Shown here: positions 2,349 through 30,919 of the stretch, piece by piece
How the letters are laid out: each line of letters starts with the position of its first letter
Numbering within the stretch: the first letter of the stretch is position 1
Source of the DNA: a virus
Lineage: Duplodnaviria > Caudoviricetes
Virus record (IMG/VR): IMGVR_UViG_3300042888_002422
Location: 1-53,543 of that record
Strand: one strand, 5' to 3'
DNA: 53,543 nt
The notes under the pieces: model-generated
What the model was told of the DNA's origin: nothing
What the model saw: the letters and a program-made list of their open reading frames with translations, nothing else
Database searches by the model: none
Program-made: the position numbers and the translations under genes

Positions 2349-3587
2349 TTATTGAAACCAAGAACTTGGATTTGTTTTTGAAGTGGATGAAGATTTTTCT
2401 TTTGAAACTTGTCTTGCTACTTCTCCAAATAATGAATCTGTTTTTTTAGTTACACCAGTCTTTTGAATGGTTGATAATGTAGGATCTTTTTCTAATATTT
2501 TTAAAAGTAATCCCACTTTAACTTTCATGGCATGATTTTCAGGTCTTTTAAGATCTAATATAGTTCTATCAAAATCTGATAATGTTTCTCCTGTAGGAGT
2601 TTTCCATTTATCTACCAATAGAAAATCTTGTAACTCATTTACTAACTTAGGATTTAATGGAATACCATCAAACTCTTTTGCTTTCATTTTTTCTGTTAAA
2701 ATATTTTGTACATTATTAATGTATTGATTTTTAACACCTTGTTTTTGTTGTAACTCTTGTTCAGCTTTAGTTTCAATTTGAGCTAGTTTAGAAGCTTCTT
2801 TTTTAACTAATACTTTATGATGTTTAGTTGCAACAGTTTCAAGATCACCATAATTTTGTAGTCTTTCAATTTCTGAATCAATATCTTCATGATCAAAACC
2901 TTGATCTGCTAATGCTTGTTTCATTATTGTTTTTTGGTTTGCTTCTGTAGATAAATCCATTTCAGCAAAATTTACAACAGAATTATATGTATTAAAATAC
3001 TCTTTAGGATCTGCTCCTTTTACAAATATAGCCTCGAATGCATTTTGGTAATCTTCTCCAAATTGTCCTATAAAGTTTTCTACAATTTCTGATGCACCTT
3101 TTTTCTTTTCAGAATTAAACTTTTCTAAGAATTGTTCCGGTGTTGATATTGCTTCTTCATCATCGTCATCTTTATTAAAAACTCCAAGTTTATAAAGATC
3201 ATTTGCTAAAGCACTGAATTGTGTTCCTTCTGGAGCATCGGGTTCCTCTGTATTAGGTTCAGTAGGTTTTGCTTTAACAACTGGAGGGGTGTCAACATCA
3301 TCATCATCATCATTATCTCCTAAGAAATTAGATATTGCAGATTGAGATTTTGTATTATCATCATCTCCTTCTTCTATAGGTGTAATAGTTTTACCTTTAG
3401 GGACTGCTGGGGCTTCAGGAGCTGCAGCTGGAGTTGCTTCTTTAATGATAGGAGTTACATCTTCTGGATTAGAAGTAGATGTTTCTGGTTCAAACAAACC
3501 TTGAAGTAATTCTTGGTTTCCCATTCCCATATCCATTGTACCTTGAATGCTAAAAGCATCCATTGATATTTCTGTATTATCAGCCAT
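2349..3587 (-). CDS. Acidic scaffold-like/head assembly protein
   Basis: 412 aa, acidic low-complexity N-terminus plus coiled coil, located between portal and MCP as in crAss-like head modules. Confidence 0.65.
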   Translation of the reverse strand: MADNTEISMDAFSIQGTMDMGMGNQELLQGLFEPETSTSNPEDVTPIIKEATPAAAPEAPAVPKGKTITPIEEGDDDNTKSQSAISNFLGDNDDDDDVDTPPVVKAKPTEPNTEEPDAPEGTQFSALANDLYKLGVFNKDDDDEEAISTPEQFLEKFNSEKKKGASEIVENFIGQFGEDYQNAFEAIFVKGADPKEYFNTYNSVVNFAEMDLSTEANQKTIMKQALADQGFDHEDIDSEIERLQNYGDLETVATKHHKVLVKKEASKLAQIETKAEQELQQKQGVKNQYINNVQNILTEKMKAKEFDGIPLNPKLVNELQDFLLVDKWKTPTGETLSDFDRTILDLKRPENHAMKVKVGLLLKILEKDPTLSTIQKTGVTKKTDSLFGEVARQVSKEKSSSTSKTNPSSWFQ

Positions 3588-3626
3588 AATGTAGTTTGTA
3601 TTTAATAATTTGGTTTTATTTACGTG

Positions 3627-3657
3627 TAAAAATATAATGTATATATCTTATATCAAA
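3627..3657 (-). promoter_or_regulatory. Near-consensus Bacteroidota sigma70 promoter for the scaffold/capsid genes
   Basis: Minus strand TTTG-N19-TATTTTTA (consensus TTTG-N19-21-TAnnTTTG, one mismatch). Confidence 0.5.
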
Positions 3658-3730
3658 GGAATATATAACTTTATCTAATATTTTTTGTTATAATATAGCA
3701 TTAAAGTTATATTCCTTTAATAAAGAATTA

Positions 3731-6316
3731 TTATTTAGCCTTGTTTCTCCCTTTAGCATTTTCTTTTGCTACAGCAAGATCATTAGCCATATTTTCTCTA
3801 GCTACTGCAATCTTCTCTTGTTCTACAGCCATTTTAGTATCAAACTGTTTATTTTTTGAAGATATATCAGCCATTTTAGATTGATAATCTTTTGCAGCTT
3901 TATCTTGTTCATGTGTTAATTTATTCATTTCCATTATATCAGGAACTGCATTTTCATTAACATCTTCTGATCCCACTTTACCAAATCCTGTAGCTTGTAT
4001 AATAGCAATTTCTTTTCTTGAAATTCTATCTAGATCTTTTTGATAATCATCATGAGCAATTTGTTCTTCATGTTGTTGTGCAGCTTGTTGAATCTGAGCT
4101 TGAGCTTGTTCTTTTTGTTGATCAAGAGCTTGTTGTTTTTGTTGCATTTCTTGTTGTTGAATTGCTTGTTGTTGGTCTCTAAGATCTTTAAATACTTTTT
4201 TCATCTCTCTCATAGACTTAGTACTGTATAATTCAATAACATCATATATACTTCCACCATTTTGCATAAGAGGTTGTGCAAGTGCTCTGATTTCATTAAA
4301 CATTTGTGTATCTTCTGGTCTATTTGTAGGAAACACTTTTAAGTCACGAAATTTAAGATCTGTACCATTTACTTGTATAAATGCAGATAAGCCCTCAGAT
4401 GTAATATATGATAGCGTACTTTGTGGTTTAGAACTTTCTATATATTGTGATGCGTCTATTATTGCTTGATACAATTGTCCTTGTACATATTCGTGCGCTA
4501 CAAATAAAGGTTCTGTTTGTGAATAAGATTGTTGCATTGCTGTATTAGTACCTGTAGCTGTTTCTGAGGAAGATACATTACCCATACGTTGTTTAGACAT
4601 ACCTACTAATTCCCAACATTCCATTTTAATTTGTTGTGCTAAAGTATATCTAGATTGTATCTCTTGTGTACGTGTTAGATCAAGAGCTGTAAATTGGTTA
4701 AATGAACTTGGGGCTTTTAAGTTTTCAGGGCTATCATCAATAAATACTACACCTCTATTACGAGCTTCCATTTCCCACATATCAAGAGCATCTTGTGCAT
4801 CTCCATCTTTAGGAACAGGTACGTGTCTTAATGACATAAGTTGTACTTTACCAACTTCTTTTTCAAGTAATTTGTATAATTGATTCATACAAACATTATA
4901 TATTACTTGAAAAGGTTTCATAAGATCTATCAAGCTTTTTGCTTCTGTATTCTTAACTTCATGTGTTGTACCTATAATAGGGCAATAGTTTAAAAGATTA
5001 AAAGGTTTAATATGGTAAATATCTGGGCCTATTTTAATTCCTTGATACCATTGGTTAATCCAACCCCATTCAAGAGATTGTTGTGATGGCATAGTACCTG
5101 ATTTATAATTTTCATCAACAAGTGTTGATTGCTCATTACCCATTTCATCTATATAAATAAGTTTACCTATTTTCTTTTTAGAAATCCAATAGCTTCTTAC
5201 AACAACATATTTATACCCAAATGAACTTACATTATTAGTAAGGCCTAAAAAGTCTTTAAGTCCATCATTATTTTCTTTCATTTCTGATTCAATCATCATT
5301 CTTGTTTGTAAAACAAGTGGATCAAATGTATCATACTGAACAGAGTCTTGACCTTCTGGTGCATTAGGGTTACCAAGGTTAGATTCTCTAACATTAATTA
5401 ATCCATAATCTTGAAGAGAAGAACGTAAATGATCTATTTCTTCTTTAGTAATATCTGGTATAGCTTCAATAATTTCAGATAGTTCCATAACTTGCACAGT
5501 TCCAGCAGCATAAGCTCCTTGAGCTCTACCAGTTGGATCTGATACCCATTTCCTATCAGGAGTAGTAAGGAACCAAGTATTTTTTGGGTTAGCCACTTCA
5601 ATGTTAAAACCAAGTTTTGAGTTGTCTTCATATATATGATAAAATTCACGAGCACTAATTAACATATCTCTAAATGCATCTTCACCTTTTTCTTTAATAT
5701 TAAATTCTGCTTTCATGCATGTAAGAATATGGTTAGCCCATTTTTCTGCTACAGAAGTATAACTATCAAGTTGATCTTTAACTTGTTCCATTGACATTTG
5801 TTCAAGTTCCTCATCTTCTGGAATCTCTTGCCCGGACATTGTTAATTTTTGTAATATCTTTTCTTTAGCTTGTGCTAATATATATTTTTGAAGAGTTTCT
5901 GTTTTAAATTGTAATTCTTCAGCTTGACTATCATCATCAAAAGCTTTCACTCTATATGTATCAGGTCTTTTAGAACACTCACCAATTAATTCATTAATAG
6001 GTGTAGTAACAATAGAATAATGTTTTACATATGCAGGAAGGCCTATGTTAGTTTCTAACATGTCTACAAAACTCTTAGTATCAGGTTCTTGGTAGAAATC
6101 TTCTGCTCTAAGAATACCTTTTACAAGATCATAATTAGGAACAAATGTATCTCTATTTTTAATATATTCAGCATAAGCTTTGTTAGCAAAATAATCCATT
6201 GAATTTTTTATCCAACTTTCATCTTGTTTTTCTTTATCAGTTTTAAACTGATCAGGAAATATATTCAGATAAGCGTATCTGATTGTAGCATCTTTTGTAT
6301 ACCTAATTATTGCCAT
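3731..6316 (-). CDS. Portal protein
   Basis: 861 aa directly downstream of terminase; ELVGMSKQRMG...ETATG motif and Q-rich C-terminal coiled coil typical of large crAss-like portals. Confidence 0.85.
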   Translation of the reverse strand: MAIIRYTKDATIRYAYLNIFPDQFKTDKEKQDESWIKNSMDYFANKAYAEYIKNRDTFVPNYDLVKGILRAEDFYQEPDTKSFVDMLETNIGLPAYVKHYSIVTTPINELIGECSKRPDTYRVKAFDDDSQAEELQFKTETLQKYILAQAKEKILQKLTMSGQEIPEDEELEQMSMEQVKDQLDSYTSVAEKWANHILTCMKAEFNIKEKGEDAFRDMLISAREFYHIYEDNSKLGFNIEVANPKNTWFLTTPDRKWVSDPTGRAQGAYAAGTVQVMELSEIIEAIPDITKEEIDHLRSSLQDYGLINVRESNLGNPNAPEGQDSVQYDTFDPLVLQTRMMIESEMKENNDGLKDFLGLTNNVSSFGYKYVVVRSYWISKKKIGKLIYIDEMGNEQSTLVDENYKSGTMPSQQSLEWGWINQWYQGIKIGPDIYHIKPFNLLNYCPIIGTTHEVKNTEAKSLIDLMKPFQVIYNVCMNQLYKLLEKEVGKVQLMSLRHVPVPKDGDAQDALDMWEMEARNRGVVFIDDSPENLKAPSSFNQFTALDLTRTQEIQSRYTLAQQIKMECWELVGMSKQRMGNVSSSETATGTNTAMQQSYSQTEPLFVAHEYVQGQLYQAIIDASQYIESSKPQSTLSYITSEGLSAFIQVNGTDLKFRDLKVFPTNRPEDTQMFNEIRALAQPLMQNGGSIYDVIELYSTKSMREMKKVFKDLRDQQQAIQQQEMQQKQQALDQQKEQAQAQIQQAAQQHEEQIAHDDYQKDLDRISRKEIAIIQATGFGKVGSEDVNENAVPDIMEMNKLTHEQDKAAKDYQSKMADISSKNKQFDTKMAVEQEKIAVARENMANDLAVAKENAKGRNKAK

Positions 6317-17891: not shown

Positions 17892-18359
17892 ATGTCAACA
17901 GTTAAATCAACAACAACAGGAGTTTCAAAAAGTGAATTTTCAATCGTTAGAGCAATCAGTGCTTTATTTAAATTAGGTAATGATGGTAAGTTAGATTCTT
18001 TTGTTAATAGAGTAGTTAAAACTCTTAATAAAGAAGTATTAACACACAAAAAGAATTTAGATACTATGAAATTTAATCATGAGCAAAAACTTGATAGTTT
18101 AGCAGATCAATTAGAAGATGCTAATGAAGCTTTAGCTGCATCTTATTTAAATATTGCAGTTGAACAAATTGATAATAATGAAAAACAAACAAGATTTGTA
18201 GATGTATATTTACAAAACATTGATGACCATTTAATGGCTGTTAAAACCATTGAAAAAAGAATTGAAGGAATTAAAAAAGATTATATCGGAGAAACTCAAG
18301 AAGTTCAAGATGATATTGATAGTCTTAACAAAAGAATTGCAATTATTGCAAAACAATAA
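17892..18359 (+). CDS. Coiled-coil hypothetical protein
   Basis: 155 aa with heptad pattern. Confidence 0.8.
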   Translation: MSTVKSTTTGVSKSEFSIVRAISALFKLGNDGKLDSFVNRVVKTLNKEVLTHKKNLDTMKFNHEQKLDSLADQLEDANEALAASYLNIAVEQIDNNEKQTRFVDVYLQNIDDHLMAVKTIEKRIEGIKKDYIGETQEVQDDIDSLNKRIAIIAKQ

Positions 18360-18368
18360 ATTAAATAC

Positions 18369-18950
18369 TATTCCCTCATATAAGATTCTGTGCTAGAATT
18401 AGTGAGGGAATATATTTTAGTGGTCCTACATCCACACACATTAAACTTGTAGGATTGGTCTCTGATGTTAGGGAACACTTGTGAGTTGCAATGAATAAAC
18501 TTTCAAACAGGCATAAACATTGAAAGCCTTTGTAAATAGATTAATACATCAGTGAAACTCTGTATAAATGTTAAATATTTACATAAATGATACTAATTCT
18601 GAATTGACAGGATGTTGGGTGATACATTGTCCGCAGTGTATTGCCATAAATGGAGTAATCCTAGATGTATAGATTCATGTGAGATATGAATAACGAATTG
18701 ATTTAAGTTTAATCTCCTATATGGCGTACTTAACTATACAAATGAGTTCTCAGCAAGTAGTTTAGAGTAATTGGTGGTAAACAACTAATGAAAGTCCTTT
18801 TTAGTACAACTACGTGACCCTACTCTTATTAAGTATCAATTGAAACATTAGAAACTTTGATAGAATATAAGAAAGGGTGCTAATACACTAACAACAAGAT
18901 TTTGTTAGCTTATATTCCGCTAAATGATAAGTGCTCGTACATGCGAGATT
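18369..18950 (+). ncRNA. Candidate large structured non-coding RNA (~590 nt)
   Basis: No ORF of 60 aa or more; more than 12 helices visible including nested long-range pairings and G-U pairs on the + strand; strand inferred from the flanking genes. Confidence 0.65.
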
Positions 18951-18991
18951 TTTAAACATAGAACACATAGAAACATTTAAAACACAGAAAT

Positions 18992-19138
18992 ATGAAAACA
19001 ATTAGCATGTCACCAACAACTTTTTATTTATTTAAACAAAAAGCAAATGAAATCAGACTATGGTTTGATTATAAAATAACCAAAGGTATTGTATTTGTAC
19101 AAGCCGATGAACAAGCATTAGAAGAATTAGGTTATTAA
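18992..19138 (+). CDS. Small hypothetical protein (48 aa)
   Basis: MKTISMSPTTFYLF...ALEELGY, followed by a terminator. Confidence 0.6.
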   Translation: MKTISMSPTTFYLFKQKANEIRLWFDYKITKGIVFVQADEQALEELGY

Positions 19139-19148
19139 TTTCTGAATT

Positions 19149-19171
19149 AGCCCTAGAAATAGGGCTTTTTT
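19149..19171 (+). terminator. Rho-independent terminator
   Basis: AGCCCTA-GAAA-TAGGGCT-TTTTT. Confidence 0.8.
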
Positions 19172-19188
19172 ATTTAAAATTTAAATAT

Positions 19189-19662
19189 ATGAGTACATAT
19201 GTATTTAGTGATCCACATTTTGGACATGAAAAAATGGCTATAAGAAGAGGATTTAGTTCAGCAGAAGAAATGGATGAACTTATTGTTAAAAACTGGAATA
19301 ATACTATATCTAAAAGAGATGCTGTATATATTATGGGTGATATAACAATGGAAAAAAATAATTATACTATTCTTGGTAGATTACAAGGACTTATTAATGT
19401 TGTTCTTGGTAATCATGATCAAAAACAACATGTAAGAGAAATGTTAAAATATATACATAGTGTGGCAGGTATGGTAGATTATAAAAAAACTGTTATATTT
19501 ACACATTGTCCTATACATTCTAGTCAATTAGAATTTAGATATAAATATAATATACATGGTCATGTTCATGAAAATAGTCTTGATGATAAGAGATATATAA
19601 ATGTATGTGCAGAAGTAATAGATTACAAACCAAAATTAATAACAAGTTTAATAACATTATGA
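19189..19662 (+). CDS. Calcineurin-like metallophosphoesterase
   Basis: SDPHFGH, GD, GNHD, THCP, HGHVH motifs. Confidence 0.92.
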   Translation: MSTYVFSDPHFGHEKMAIRRGFSSAEEMDELIVKNWNNTISKRDAVYIMGDITMEKNNYTILGRLQGLINVVLGNHDQKQHVREMLKYIHSVAGMVDYKKTVIFTHCPIHSSQLEFRYKYNIHGHVHENSLDDKRYINVCAEVIDYKPKLITSLITL

Positions 19663-30110: not shown

Positions 30111-30140
30111 AGGACAGCTATTAACTTAGCTGTCTTTTTT
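30111..30140 (+). terminator. Rho-independent terminator
   Basis: AGGACAGCTA-TTAACT-TAGCTGTCTT-TTTT. Confidence 0.75.
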
Positions 30141-30163
30141 ATTAAACTTAGAACACATAAAAA

Positions 30164-30919
30164 ATGAAAACACAAATTGAGAATGCAATTACATATTTAA
30201 AAACTTTAGAAATTAACGGATGTTTAACTGGTAGTGCTTTATTAGACTATTTTCCAGATAGCAACCAAGATATTGACATTTTCACTTATGATGAAGCTGC
30301 CTTTACAAAATTAATATTTACTCTTTATCACAATTCTATGTTCTTATTAATTGAACCAATGGAACAATGGAAGTTTAAAGATTGGACAGAAAATCCTTAT
30401 AAAGGAAGTCTTAAAAAACTAGGCCTCATCTCTATTAAATTCAAATATAATATGTCTGTTGACGTTAATATTATATTTAAAGAAAGAAATCATACAATAT
30501 TTGATGTTCTTTCTACATTTGATTTAGATATAATTGCTGTTGGTTATGATTTAAAAACTAAAAAAACTTTAGATTTATCAGAACATAATGGTAAAATAGC
30601 TACATGGAATAAATGGAATAAATCTTTTTACACGCCAAATATTTGGGCTGTAAGTAGAATATTAAGACAATTTCAGCGAGTAATAAAATATCATGACAGA
30701 GGCTATAATACAGATAGTGTCACTATTAAATATATAGAGATATTACAAAGTATGTTAGATTATGAAAATATTTTCTCTTCTGAAAAAGTAGATGAAAAAG
30801 TAGAATCAGTTAAAACCAATAGTAAAATTTTAATTAAGATTTTAAACAAATGGTTAGAAACTCACATAATGACAGAAATAGAATTAGAACTTATTAATAA
30901 AACAATTAAACAATTATAA
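30164..30919 (+). CDS. Pol-beta superfamily nucleotidyltransferase (tRNA-NTase/poly(A) polymerase head-like)
   Basis: LTGS...QDIDIF (GS-x-DxD), DVNIIF, FDLDIIAVGYD, RVIKYHDRGY. Confidence 0.75.
   Translation: MKTQIENAITYLKTLEINGCLTGSALLDYFPDSNQDIDIFTYDEAAFTKLIFTLYHNSMFLLIEPMEQWKFKDWTENPYKGSLKKLGLISIKFKYNMSVDVNIIFKERNHTIFDVLSTFDLDIIAVGYDLKTKKTLDLSEHNGKIATWNKWNKSFYTPNIWAVSRILRQFQRVIKYHDRGYNTDSVTIKYIEILQSMLDYENIFSSEKVDEKVESVKTNSKILIKILNKWLETHIMTEIELELINKTIKQL

Follow-up and report, generated by a model that had tools for sequence, protein, structure and literature searches.

The tRNA gene cluster of phage T4 also encodes stable RNAs of unknown function that are co-located and co-processed with the tRNAs, and a free-standing homing endonuclease gene, SegB, lies within the same RNA gene cluster. 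ROOL and GOLLD, as described in 10.1101/2024.12.08.627333, are sizeable phage and prophage RNAs with elaborate folds; they are found near tRNA islands, are abundant and have no known function. An RNA-seq preprint on the crAss-like Cellulophaga phage phi14:2 reports rightward transcription of two intergenic regions, g004-g005 and g005-g006, at a level that exceeds most coding genes, is already seen at the earliest time point and does not fall off later. Its accessible text names both as long non-coding RNAs of unknown function, and gives for them no sequence family, structure, homologues or function.

Here we analysed a phage DNA of 53,543 nucleotides (the window, by which we mean this whole stretch), whose portal and DNA polymerase resemble crAss-like phage proteins at 25-33% identity. 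We conclude, with a probability of about 0.8, that positions 18417-18955 of the + strand encode a stable non-coding RNA of about 540 nt with extensive structure, which belongs to a widespread phage RNA family of which we found no description. The data support its being a new class, unmatched by described families. The main reading of the original prediction, that a crAss-like phage encodes a large structured RNA outside the described classes, is thereby supported by the lack of any Rfam 15 match and by covariation in 70 relatives.

Results

An ORF-free tract and its flanks

The ORF list of the window leaves a gene-free stretch of 632 nt (18360-18991), which bears out the ORF-free tract originally noticed: the upstream ORF stops at 18359, the next ATG ORF begins at 18992 (Table 1) and all six frames between them are closed. 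Each frame of 18360-18991 holds 10-24 stops with TAA, TAG and TGA all present, so that no stop reassignment opens a frame, and an alternative genetic code was rejected on this ground. No coding remnant was found in any frame of the stretch. No relative of the upstream 155-aa protein was found in viral contigs; the downstream 48-aa ORF has protein-level relatives in L004, where it lies directly 3' of the RNA, and in L015, L008 and L009. The only tRNA of the window lies about 18 kb from the RNA on the opposite strand (543-616), and this copy of the RNA adjoins no tRNA or tmRNA. The hairpin at 18369-18412, which had been counted as part of the structured RNA, is real but is outside the conserved RNA, since the family profile match begins only at 18417 and L004 has no such hairpin; it probably serves to terminate transcription of the upstream ORF (17892-18359).

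Table 1. The RNA gene and its flanks, in positions of the window.
Feature	Position	Strand	Remarks
Upstream ORF, 155 aa	17892..18359	+	no known family; flank, outside RNA
Long interrupted hairpin, then TATATTTT	18369..18412	+	stem strings at 18369 and 18403; folds as hairpin
Optional 5' module	18417..18507	+	three hairpins: 18422-30/18448-56, 18459-63/18470-74, 18479-87/18498-506
Conserved core	18508..18884	+	377 nt here; homology and covariation
H1	18509-12/18526-29	+	loop UAAACAUUGA
H2	18531-37/18577-83	+	
H3	18593-95/18662-64 plus 18652-53/18660-61	+	GNRA tetraloop cap 18655-58
Arm inserted in H3	18596-601/18608-13 and 18618-29/18634-45	+	hairpin and 12-bp hairpin; window's subtype
H4	18666-72/18734-40	+	
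H5	18673-78/18686-91	+	
H6	18703-08/18728-33	+	variable hairpin
Linker AAAUGAGUUCUCAGCA	18741..18756	+	between H4 and H7; most conserved single-stranded segment
Pseudoknot	18748-52 with 18680-84	+	linker with H5 loop; 5 bp here, 6-7 bp in consensus
H7	18757-62/18808-13	+	
H8	18763-807	+	variable region
H9	18817-21/18874-78 and 18824-29/18867-72	+	
Core 3' tail GCUAA	18879-83	+	
Optional 3' module	18885..18957	+	hairpins 18888-94/18902-08, 18934-38/18943-47; conserved UGAUAAGUG at 18925-33
Downstream ORF, 48 aa	18992..19138	+	flank, outside RNA
Terminator	19149-66		flank, after 48-aa ORF
Metallophosphoesterase gene	19189-19662		flank

A widespread family with no match in Rfam

An nhmmer search with the window sequence alone, a check suggested with the original prediction, found 77 loci, down to E = 3e-31. 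The family profile matches 163 of the fetched sequences, from which 89 distinct complete cores were extracted, and the window's copy aligns to model positions 6-531. Most members were gathered through an exact 18-mer of the linker, present in at least 119 viral contigs, which inflates the apparent invariance of this segment; members reached through a different anchor nevertheless retain most of the inner AGTTCTC.GCAAGT. Contigs with relatives span 4 to 373 kb, and the crAss-like assignment covers the window and phi14:2. Against GenBank phages the full 632-nt query gave no match at 1e-5, and with a shorter query from the core, at E<=10, the one match was phi14:2, all other rows being of 23-43 nt and at chance level; phi14:2 is thus the sole cultured phage with the RNA among GenBank phages. 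Among the genomes of 185,579 bacterial species the exact 18-mer occurs in 17 contigs, about six of which (L140, L144, L149, L153, L154, L155; all metagenome-assembled) carry further family anchors. Chromosomal 18-mer matches in Tunturiibacter were set aside, as they lack every other family anchor and look unrelated.

The family is defined by an H1 with the loop UAAACAUUGA, an H3 with a GNRA loop, H4/H5 with the loop UUGAGAAAG, the linker AAAUGAGUUCUCAGCAAGU, H7, and an H9 ending GGGUGCUAA. The window's copy has all of these elements, with pairs checked letter by letter.

An Rfam scan, likewise suggested at the outset for ROOL, GOLLD, introns and RNase P, gave no match: the window lacks a hit to any family of Rfam 15 at the gathering score, and 18200-19200 lacks one at E<=10, while permissive thresholds on the loci of 46 relatives gave nothing on the element. 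Bacterial RNase P RNA is without an Rfam match on the window, permissive threshold included. Neither ARAGORN nor the Rfam models recognise the element as tRNA or tmRNA. We found no description of the family in the literature on large structured phage RNAs, phage tmRNA, GOLLD/ROOL, Crassvirales or the non-coding RNAs of phi14, and a 2026 preprint on non-coding clusters held nothing relevant to it.

A covarying core with a pseudoknot

Folding of the single sequence gives modest support by itself (+ strand, z = -2.23, 0/20 shuffles as stable; - strand, z = -1.03, 4/20 as stable), and the real support comes from the relatives. Covariation was analysed in 70 of the 89 distinct complete cores, the 19 cores longer than 400 nt being left out. 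In these 70 sequences 93.1% of the cells of the consensus fold are paired, against 81.8% in shuffles (0/500 reach the observed value) and 38-47% when partners are slid. Both-side changes occur in 283 cells against 58 in shuffles, and compensatory change is seen at 38 of the 52 pairs, so that covarying homologues of the predicted RNA do exist. RNAalifold, run blind on 21 sequences, recovered H3, the pseudoknot, H7 and H9a. A GNRA tetraloop closes H3 in 70/70 sequences. At one position of H3 the most frequent pair is U-G (38/70), which fits an RNA read from the + strand, and the + strand also folds better than the -. The conserved core, which ranges from 253 to 511 nt among relatives with a median of 312 nt, thus consists of nine helices around a multi-helix junction, with one GNRA-capped helix and a pseudoknot between the linker and the H5 loop; attached to this core are variable hairpins and, as optional parts, the 5' and 3' modules.

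The original prediction had listed 16 pairs of complementary strings. All 16 are where they were said to be, and as helices about half of them hold while five conflict with covarying helices. Covariation supports the ATTCATGT/ATATGAAT stem as H5, GTAGTT/AACTAC as H7, and ACCCT/AGGGT together with TCTTAT/ATAAGA as H9. TCCTACA/TGTAGGA and CTCGT/GCGAG have covarying variants in subsets of the relatives and belong to the 5' and the 3' module, respectively. The 12-bp hairpin has its UCCG loop and three G-U pairs as claimed and, like TTAAGT/ACTTAA, TATCAA/TTGATA and CTAACAA/TTGTTAG, is a plausible local hairpin in a region that varies among relatives. The prediction erred in several long-range pairings. 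CTTTCAA/TTGAAAG would use the invariant H1 loop and CTGATGT/ACATCAG crosses H2; TGTATA(18561)/TATACA(18735) competes with H4, in which 18734-40 pairs with 18666-72; the GAGTT of AACTC/GAGTT (18744-48) lies within the invariant linker; and the strings of AGGAT/ATCCT are taken up by a local hairpin and by H3.

The window's H5 loop reads GUGAGAU, which gives 5/6 pseudoknot pairs. Among 127 distinct sequences the pseudoknot is canonical in 111, made via G-U in 6 and via both-side changes in 2, has a one-pair mismatch in 7 and a gapped linker in 1; it is thus formed mostly by invariant bases, with only the 2 double changes. A second tertiary contact may join CAUU of the H1 loop to AAUG of the linker; a fuzzy-motif check of this idea was too noisy to judge it.

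The 5' module is common to a subset of relatives (L124, L042, L139, L004, L086, L032, L013, L023), and its stems show compensatory change (CCTACA/TGTAGG to GTACCCA/TGGGTGC; TCTCT/AGGGA to TGACT/AGTCA). In L013 and L023 it comes after a tRNA-like 3' end. The last hairpin of the 3' module (18934-38/18943-47) has the loop ACAU and is followed by AUUUUU. It covaries among relatives (CCCTC/GAGGG, TCCTC/GAGGA, GACGC/GCGTC, CTCAT/ATGAG) with a constant ACAT loop, and in relatives a tmRNA or tRNA begins 2-8 nt past it. The terminator-like site made up of 18934-18947 plus ATTTTTAAAC is the likely, predicted transcript end in the window's phage.

Expression of the family

In phi14:2, accession NC_021806, the family copy lies at about 2899-3368 (+), between g004 (end 2904) and g006 (start 4602), and a tmRNA is found at 4031-4500, 663 nt from the RNA and within the second intergenic region, if g005 is placed at the removed ORF at 3590-3910. 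The copy thus falls within the g004-g005 region and on the reported strand, with the borders of g005 inferred, and the g004-g005 long non-coding RNA of phi14:2 is very probably the same RNA as that of the window. In an RNA library the relatives' contigs over 18419-18511 have a word depth of 30-48 against 3-6 on pieces of the flanking ORFs, a weak hint of expression that comes from relatives' contigs and could also reflect DNA carry-over. Parts of the RNA, for example 18632-18692, are without contig cover in all four runs, a gap that is uninformative either way.

Genomic setting and alternative readings

Among 120 distinct copies a tmRNA starts on the same strand within 100 nt downstream in 17 and within 250 nt in 19. 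ARAGORN places these tmRNAs beside the element in relatives and none on it. tRNAs abut the RNA in other copies (e.g. L076, L153, L103, L119, L122). The tmRNA link, seen in about 15% of copies, is not obligatory, since the RNA occurs without a tmRNA in a close relative that is complete at 113,909 bp and bounded by terminal repeats. Neighbour clustering at 117 loci gave no convincing conserved protein partner; the commonest neighbour family, which has no known function, is found at 25 of them. A Y RNA with a Ro/TROVE partner, an idea prompted by the TROVE protein mentioned for crAss001, was rejected: 0/5 records, among them the window, the complete relative and phi14:2, had a TROVE match, with control genomes positive.

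Since the RNA is on the strand of its neighbours and, in a fair minority of copies, comes immediately before a tmRNA or tRNA, with a small ORF downstream of it in the window, it could be a cis-acting leader or processing platform for the tmRNA, for a tRNA or, here, for the 48-aa ORF and the phosphoesterase. We consider this unlikely, as what follows the RNA is not the same in all copies (a tmRNA, tRNA-Leu, tRNA-Met, tRNA-Tyr or genes for unrelated proteins), the window's copy closes with a terminator-like hairpin ahead of the next ORF, and the phi14:2 copy is 663 nt from its tmRNA. Moreover the RNA is 300-540 nt long with an invariant core, and all leaders known to us are far smaller than this.

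The case for a divergent ROOL or GOLLD member is slimmer still. The setting is the same, that of an abundant phage RNA of large size that often has tRNAs next to it and no known function; one GOLLD copy lies downstream of tRNA-Met according to 10.1101/2024.12.08.627333, and among the present relatives tRNA-Met likewise precedes the RNA in L076, where it abuts the core, and in L137, where 62 nt separate it from the match. The ROOL (RF03087) and GOLLD (RF01998) models, however, gave no match on the window at the gathering score, none at E<=10 on 1 kb of it, and none in the loci of 46 relatives. In addition, the median core of 312 nt is below the ROOL and GOLLD sizes given in 10.1101/2024.12.08.627333, where ROOL and GOLLD are themselves described as unrelated in sequence and fold. 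The original prediction had left a choice between a divergent member and a new class; the former failed the covariance-model test and the new class is supported. A tRNA setting like that of ROOL and GOLLD is found in many relatives but not at the window's copy. The family differs from them in its frequent direct tmRNA link and its invasion by homing endonucleases, both features of the new family, as well as in its smaller core and the lack of a covariance-model match.

In several relatives HNH homing endonuclease genes (HNH/NUMOD4) are inserted exactly in the linker, splitting the RNA at its most conserved segment, and the flanking parts of the RNA are partly duplicated. Split copies were noted in L158, L160, L172, L178 and L180. 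Endonuclease genes within some copies, together with the pseudoknotted multi-helix core with its GNRA loop and a patchy presence among related phages (within 4 kb at 5/18 phosphoesterase loci), are features in common with group I introns that carry HNH genes. They would be in accordance with a self-splicing group I-like intron or a derived mobile ribozyme whose homing endonucleases are the HNH genes, a reading to which we give as little weight as to ROOL or GOLLD membership. The group I/II models found no match on the window or in the four insert or split loci scanned (L160, L172, L178, L184), and no host gene is interrupted: the genes on either side of the copies are complete, for example an entire tRNA and an entire tmRNA, or two ORFs of which one has its stop codon ahead of the RNA and the other its start codon beyond it. 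Unlike such introns the new RNA has no exons to join, and its endonuclease genes break into the conserved linker, not into a peripheral loop. Insertion in the linker with partly duplicated flanks fits a free-standing endonuclease that invaded an RNA gene. Homing endonuclease genes usually target sequence that is unable to change, and their insertion here suggests that the linker is under selection. The likeness to the T4 stable RNAs, which are much shorter than the window's RNA, consists in non-tRNA stable RNAs beside phage tRNAs together with a free-standing endonuclease gene.

A DNA-level element (homing site, replication or packaging signal, decayed gene) with incidental structure might be expected from the very long invariant words, including the 18-mer exact in at least 119 viral contigs, and from the homing endonuclease association, but it is the least credible reading of all, given that compensatory changes keep the helices at 38/52 pairs, that the common G-U pairs would be mismatches on the other strand, that the phi14:2 region is reported to be transcribed at a high level, and that no frame holds a coding remnant.

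Discussion

Taken together our results point to a gene for a stable structured RNA of a new class. In the window's phage the RNA would be made as its own transcript, starting past the terminator-like hairpin that belongs to the upstream gene, and ending at the hairpin and U-run at 18934-18953. In many relatives it lies inside strings of tRNA and tmRNA genes and would be freed by the enzymes that trim those RNAs. As for function, our guess from this context, a tentative one, is that the folded RNA acts in trans on the translation apparatus, in the handling of ribosomes, tRNA or tmRNA; the next most likely function is a self-assembling RNA particle like ROOL and GOLLD. Put more broadly, it is possible, if rather doubtful, that this new class of large phage RNA has a job of its own as a ribozyme or as an RNA machine or particle that acts on host translation or ribosome rescue along with phage tRNAs and tmRNA, and that it is conserved enough to have become a homing endonuclease target, as ribosomal RNA is.

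To our knowledge large and intricate RNAs of bacteria or phages that still lack a function are few, and every one of them has become a subject of structural and mechanistic work. The present family is common in environmental phage contigs, very strongly conserved and positionally tied to tRNA and tmRNA genes, and its presence in a cultured crAss-like phage, phi14:2, for which a host, Cellulophaga baltica, and published strand-specific RNA-seq exist, makes it directly testable. RNA genes in pieces are rare except among rRNAs and tRNAs, and the copies split by homing endonuclease genes are one such case. Recognition of the family would clear spurious small ORFs from phage annotations, and the family would account for the abundant long non-coding RNA left open by the transcription study of phi14:2.

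Conservation and fold of the RNA

The plus strand of the tract carries a conserved, covarying and pseudoknotted fold that is widespread in phages and belongs to no described family, neither Rfam 15 nor literature searches giving a description of it. In the window the tract lies between a 155-aa ORF with its stop at 18359 and a 48-aa ORF starting at 18992. Each of the six frames in between contains 10-24 stop codons, with TAA, TAG and TGA present in all of them, so that no stop-codon reassignment opens a frame and the tract is indeed ORF-free, as the original prediction had stated. G+C content is slightly higher here (~0.32 versus ~0.25 in the flanks). All 16 complementary string pairs listed in that prediction were found at their coordinates. 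Single-sequence folding gave z = -2.23 on the plus strand (0/20 shuffles equally stable) and -1.03 on the minus strand (4/20), a modest support from which the true stems cannot be told with the window alone.

The first homologues came from loci fetched via the neighbouring phosphoesterase gene and showed long identical blocks interspersed with variable stretches. An 18-base word of the most conserved block occurs exactly in at least 119 viral contigs, nhmmer with the window sequence alone found 77 loci (down to E = 3e-31), and scanning with another word, of 20 bases, yielded 71 stretches, of which 36 had not been found before. By profile search the family is present in 163 of the fetched sequences, from which 89 distinct complete cores of 253-511 nt were cut out. 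For the alignment we excluded 19 cores of more than 400 nt and kept the other 70; a consensus of 52 pairs, drawn up from the conserved blocks, was then counted on them. Standard pairs occupy 93.1% of cells compared with 81.8% in column shuffles (0/500 reach the observed value), and only 38-47% of cells are paired when partners are slid by 1-3 columns. The covarying homologues that had been called for thus exist: 38 of the 52 pairs change on both sides, in 283 cells versus 58 in shuffles, with a covariation score of 0.279 versus at most 0.073 in slid controls. The commonest pair at one H3 position is U-G (38/70), a C-A mismatch on the opposite strand, which puts the RNA on the plus strand; conservation of the tract as a DNA element is a weak alternative. 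Helix pairs were checked one by one in window coordinates (table).

Features of the RNA and positions of split copies in relatives (L numbers are fetched loci; other positions refer to the window)
Feature	Position	Strand	Remarks
5' module, optional	first 90 nt of match	+	three hairpins; common to a subset of relatives
H1	18509-12/18526-29	+	closes invariant loop UAAACAUUGA
H2	18531-37/18577-83	+	encloses variable arm
H3	18593-95/18662-64 plus 18652-53/18660-61	+	GNRA tetraloop cap in 70/70
H4	18666-72/18734-40	+	encloses H5 and H6
H5	18673-78/18686-91	+	consensus loop UUGAGAAAG
H6	18703-08/18728-33	+	variable hairpin
H7	18757-62/18808-13	+	encloses variable H8
H9	18817-21/18874-78 and 18824-29/18867-72	+	followed by tail GCUAA
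3' module, optional	last 70 nt of match	+	terminal hairpin, constant ACAU loop
Split copy, L158	6394-7574
Split copy, L160	3591-4462
Split copy, L172	3106-3629
Split copy, L178	1736-2638
Split copy, L180	12311-13303	-

In the subtype of the window H3 forms a three-way junction, its extra arm containing the 12-bp UCCG hairpin. The stems originally proposed fared unevenly against this consensus. Those of H5, H7 and both parts of H9 have covariation support, and covarying variants in a subset back both TCCTACA/TGTAGGA, the 5' hairpin, and CTCGT/GCGAG, the 3'-most one. The 12-bp hairpin, TTAAGT/ACTTAA, TATCAA/TTGATA and CTAACAA/TTGTTAG lie in variable regions and are plausible, while CTTTCAA/TTGAAAG, CTGATGT/ACATCAG, TGTATA/TATACA, AACTC/GAGTT and AGGAT/ATCCT clash with covarying helices.

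The H5 loop is complementary to UUCUCA of the invariant linker between H4 and H7. This pairing is canonical in 111 of 127 distinct sequences, is preserved via G-U in 6 and by changes on both sides in 2; one pair is mismatched in 7 and the linker is gapped in 1. A blind RNAalifold prediction from 21 sequences contained this helix, of 7 bp, along with H3, H7 and H9a. A pseudoknot between the H5 loop and the linker is therefore likely, resting mainly on invariant bases. Since most members were gathered via the linker 18-mer, the invariance of the linker is partly built in; members found by the other anchor still largely retain the inner AGTTCTC.GCAAGT.

We compared the whole window with the 4227 models of Rfam 15 at gathering scores, and the sole match was a tRNA at 543-616 on the minus strand. 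This tRNA (59.3 bits) is the window's only tRNA gene, distant from the RNA and on the opposite strand. A permissive scan (E ≤ 10) of 18200-19200 gave no match on the conserved RNA (18417-18955); weak matches fell on a terminator at 19108-19180, and two below threshold (18302-18362 and 18336-18413) on the end of the upstream ORF and a hairpin at 18369-18412. Neither ROOL, GOLLD, OLE and HEARO nor group I and II introns, RNase P and tmRNA were recognised in the Rfam 15 scans, and in relatives, of which 20, 12 and 14 loci were scanned, nothing fell on the element. The proposed search against known families thus returned none on the RNA, in agreement with the earlier reading that it has no intron core, tRNA or tmRNA ends. 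A divergent ROOL or GOLLD is a weak reading beside these scans.

Ends of the RNA and split copies

The profile match spans 18417-18951 and the RNA probably starts near 18417, where conservation sets in; no convincing promoter for it was seen in the window. AUUUUU directly follows the terminal 3' hairpin, at a site scored terminator-like. The RNA of the window would thus be transcribed from its own start to a terminator at ~18953. The hairpin at 18369-18412 precedes the conserved RNA and, with its U-rich tail, resembles a terminator of the upstream gene. Just before the 48-aa ORF lies an A-rich stretch of ~38 nt (18949-18986) that is repeated with 82% identity at 30139-30174, again just before an ORF (start 30164); the two could represent a common promoter or 5' leader motif. 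In L023 (3711-3829) and L013 (3196-3313) the three-hairpin 5' module also stands alone, directly 3' of a tRNA-like or tmRNA end and followed by non-core sequence, and could there be a small RNA unit in its own right or the beginning of a different RNA.

Five relatives have a profile match that breaks in two at the linker. The upstream piece ends in a short ACCC...GGGTGG hairpin plus U-run, which takes the place of the sequence past GAGTTCTCA. An ORF comes next in L158, L160 and L180, with an HNH_3 domain confirmed for the first two and NUMOD4 also in L160, and the downstream piece has its own diverged second H3-H5, then linker, H7 and H9. A group I-like intron might be suspected from the endonucleases and is a weak explanation; intron models had no match in an Rfam scan of L160, L172 and L178. 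We read these copies as invasions of the RNA gene by free-standing homing endonuclease genes at its least changeable site, which is indirect evidence for a functionally essential linker. The split copies may represent an RNA gene in pieces.

Distribution and gene neighbourhood

Cellulophaga phage phi14:2 (Crassvirales, Steigviridae) is the single one of 50,697 GenBank phage records with the RNA, which lies there at ~2899-3368 on the plus strand; three tiny opposite-strand ORFs, since removed by RefSeq, had overlain it. A search of one genome per species over 185,579 prokaryote species found the 18-mer in 17 contigs; about 6 have further family anchors, all metagenome-assembled and none an isolate chromosome. 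At least two further studies contain DNA nearly identical to the window, in metagenomes from lakes and freshwater. Over >95% of its length the portal shares 25-28% identity with crAss-like portals, and the DNA polymerase shares 28-33% with the polymerases of IAS virus, PhiCrAss phages and a Leptolyngbya phage; judged by these proteins the window is a distant crAss-like phage. Head-to-tail double copies of the RNA with no spacer occur in L061 (3851-4364 + 4366-4692), L185 (3655-3142 + 3140-2814, minus strand) and L155 (958-1491 + 1492-1767, the second partial).

ARAGORN and a tmRNA profile built from the loci served to survey the context of 120 distinct copies, each with 500 nt or more of downstream sequence. 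A same-strand tmRNA starts within 100 nt downstream of the RNA in 17, within 250 nt in 19 and within 1000 nt in 24, several beginning 2-8 nt past the element. In L076 a tRNA-Met adjoins the core upstream; on the downstream side, tRNA-Leu is found at 2-4 nt in L153 and L103, tRNA-Met at ~46 nt in L119 and L136, and tRNA-Tyr followed by tmRNA in L122. The link is not obligatory: the copy of the window lies between protein genes, and a complete relative (113,909 bp with terminal repeats) has the RNA and no tmRNA. A T-arm and acceptor-like sequence without an ARAGORN tRNA adjoins the core upstream in L022, L093, L066, L091 and L115, and unusually long Rfam tRNA matches (99-122 nt) lie near the RNA (L066 1259-1380, L039 616-714, L022 6148-6257, L184 1990-2100, L172 3631-3729); insertions or introns in tRNAs may account for these. 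Beside the copy in L169, a permuted tmRNA model scores 42.1 bits at 886-1185, below its cut-off of 47.

The 48-aa ORF again directly follows the RNA in the close relative L004. No consistent protein partner was found among the neighbouring protein genes of the relatives, nor was a TROVE/Ro gene found in five records that include the window, a complete relative and phi14:2. A cis-acting leader is a weak proposal. The commonest neighbour is a ~319-aa protein on the same strand (25/117 loci; L004 2190-3146 and relatives) without a Pfam family, its sole match being a PHROG of unknown function. In L016 (1086-1151 + 1953-2411) and L017 (3134-3199 + 4001-4459) the N-terminal 22 residues of the phosphoesterase are matched twice, the extra match ~800 nt upstream of the full gene, which might reflect either duplication or interruption of the gene.

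Expression and possible function

An RNA-seq preprint on phi14:2 reports the g004-g005 and g005-g006 intergenic regions as long non-coding RNAs, transcribed rightward at levels exceeding those of most coding genes, already at the first time point and with no drop later on. RefSeq places the end of g004 at 2904 and the start of g006 at 4602; an ARAGORN search gives a tmRNA at 4031-4500 (NC_021806, our L194; tag GSSVQKLAMVA). We infer that g005 is the since-removed ORF at 3590-3910; if so, the first intergenic region is an RNA of this family and the second the tmRNA. The accessible part of the preprint notices the transcript, but neither the family nor the fold. In the stretch of the GenBank and RefSeq records that we viewed this tmRNA is unannotated, GenBank having small ORFs there that RefSeq removed. 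It is very probable that the RNA accumulates as an abundant, stable species, as in phi14:2. In one metatranscriptome, relatives' contigs over 18419-18511, one of which continues into canonical H1 sequence, have a word depth of 30-48 versus 3-6 for pieces on the flanking ORFs, a weak hint of expression as contigs cannot rank expression and the library may contain DNA. A joint skipping 18763-18807 (H8) is present in a DNA run as well as in the RNA run, and so reflects a natural variant without that hairpin and no splice.

In the tRNA and tmRNA strings the RNA would be released through processing of its neighbours. These gene neighbours lead us to favour a trans-acting role in translation or ribosome rescue, to which we give a probability of about one in three. 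A self-assembling particle like ROOL or GOLLD is rather less likely, and a ribozyme or a decoy against tRNA-attacking host defences less likely again. Whichever its function, the RNA is a new class among the large structured phage RNAs of unknown function that are kept with tRNA genes, set apart by its adjacency to tmRNA and by its copies split by endonuclease genes.
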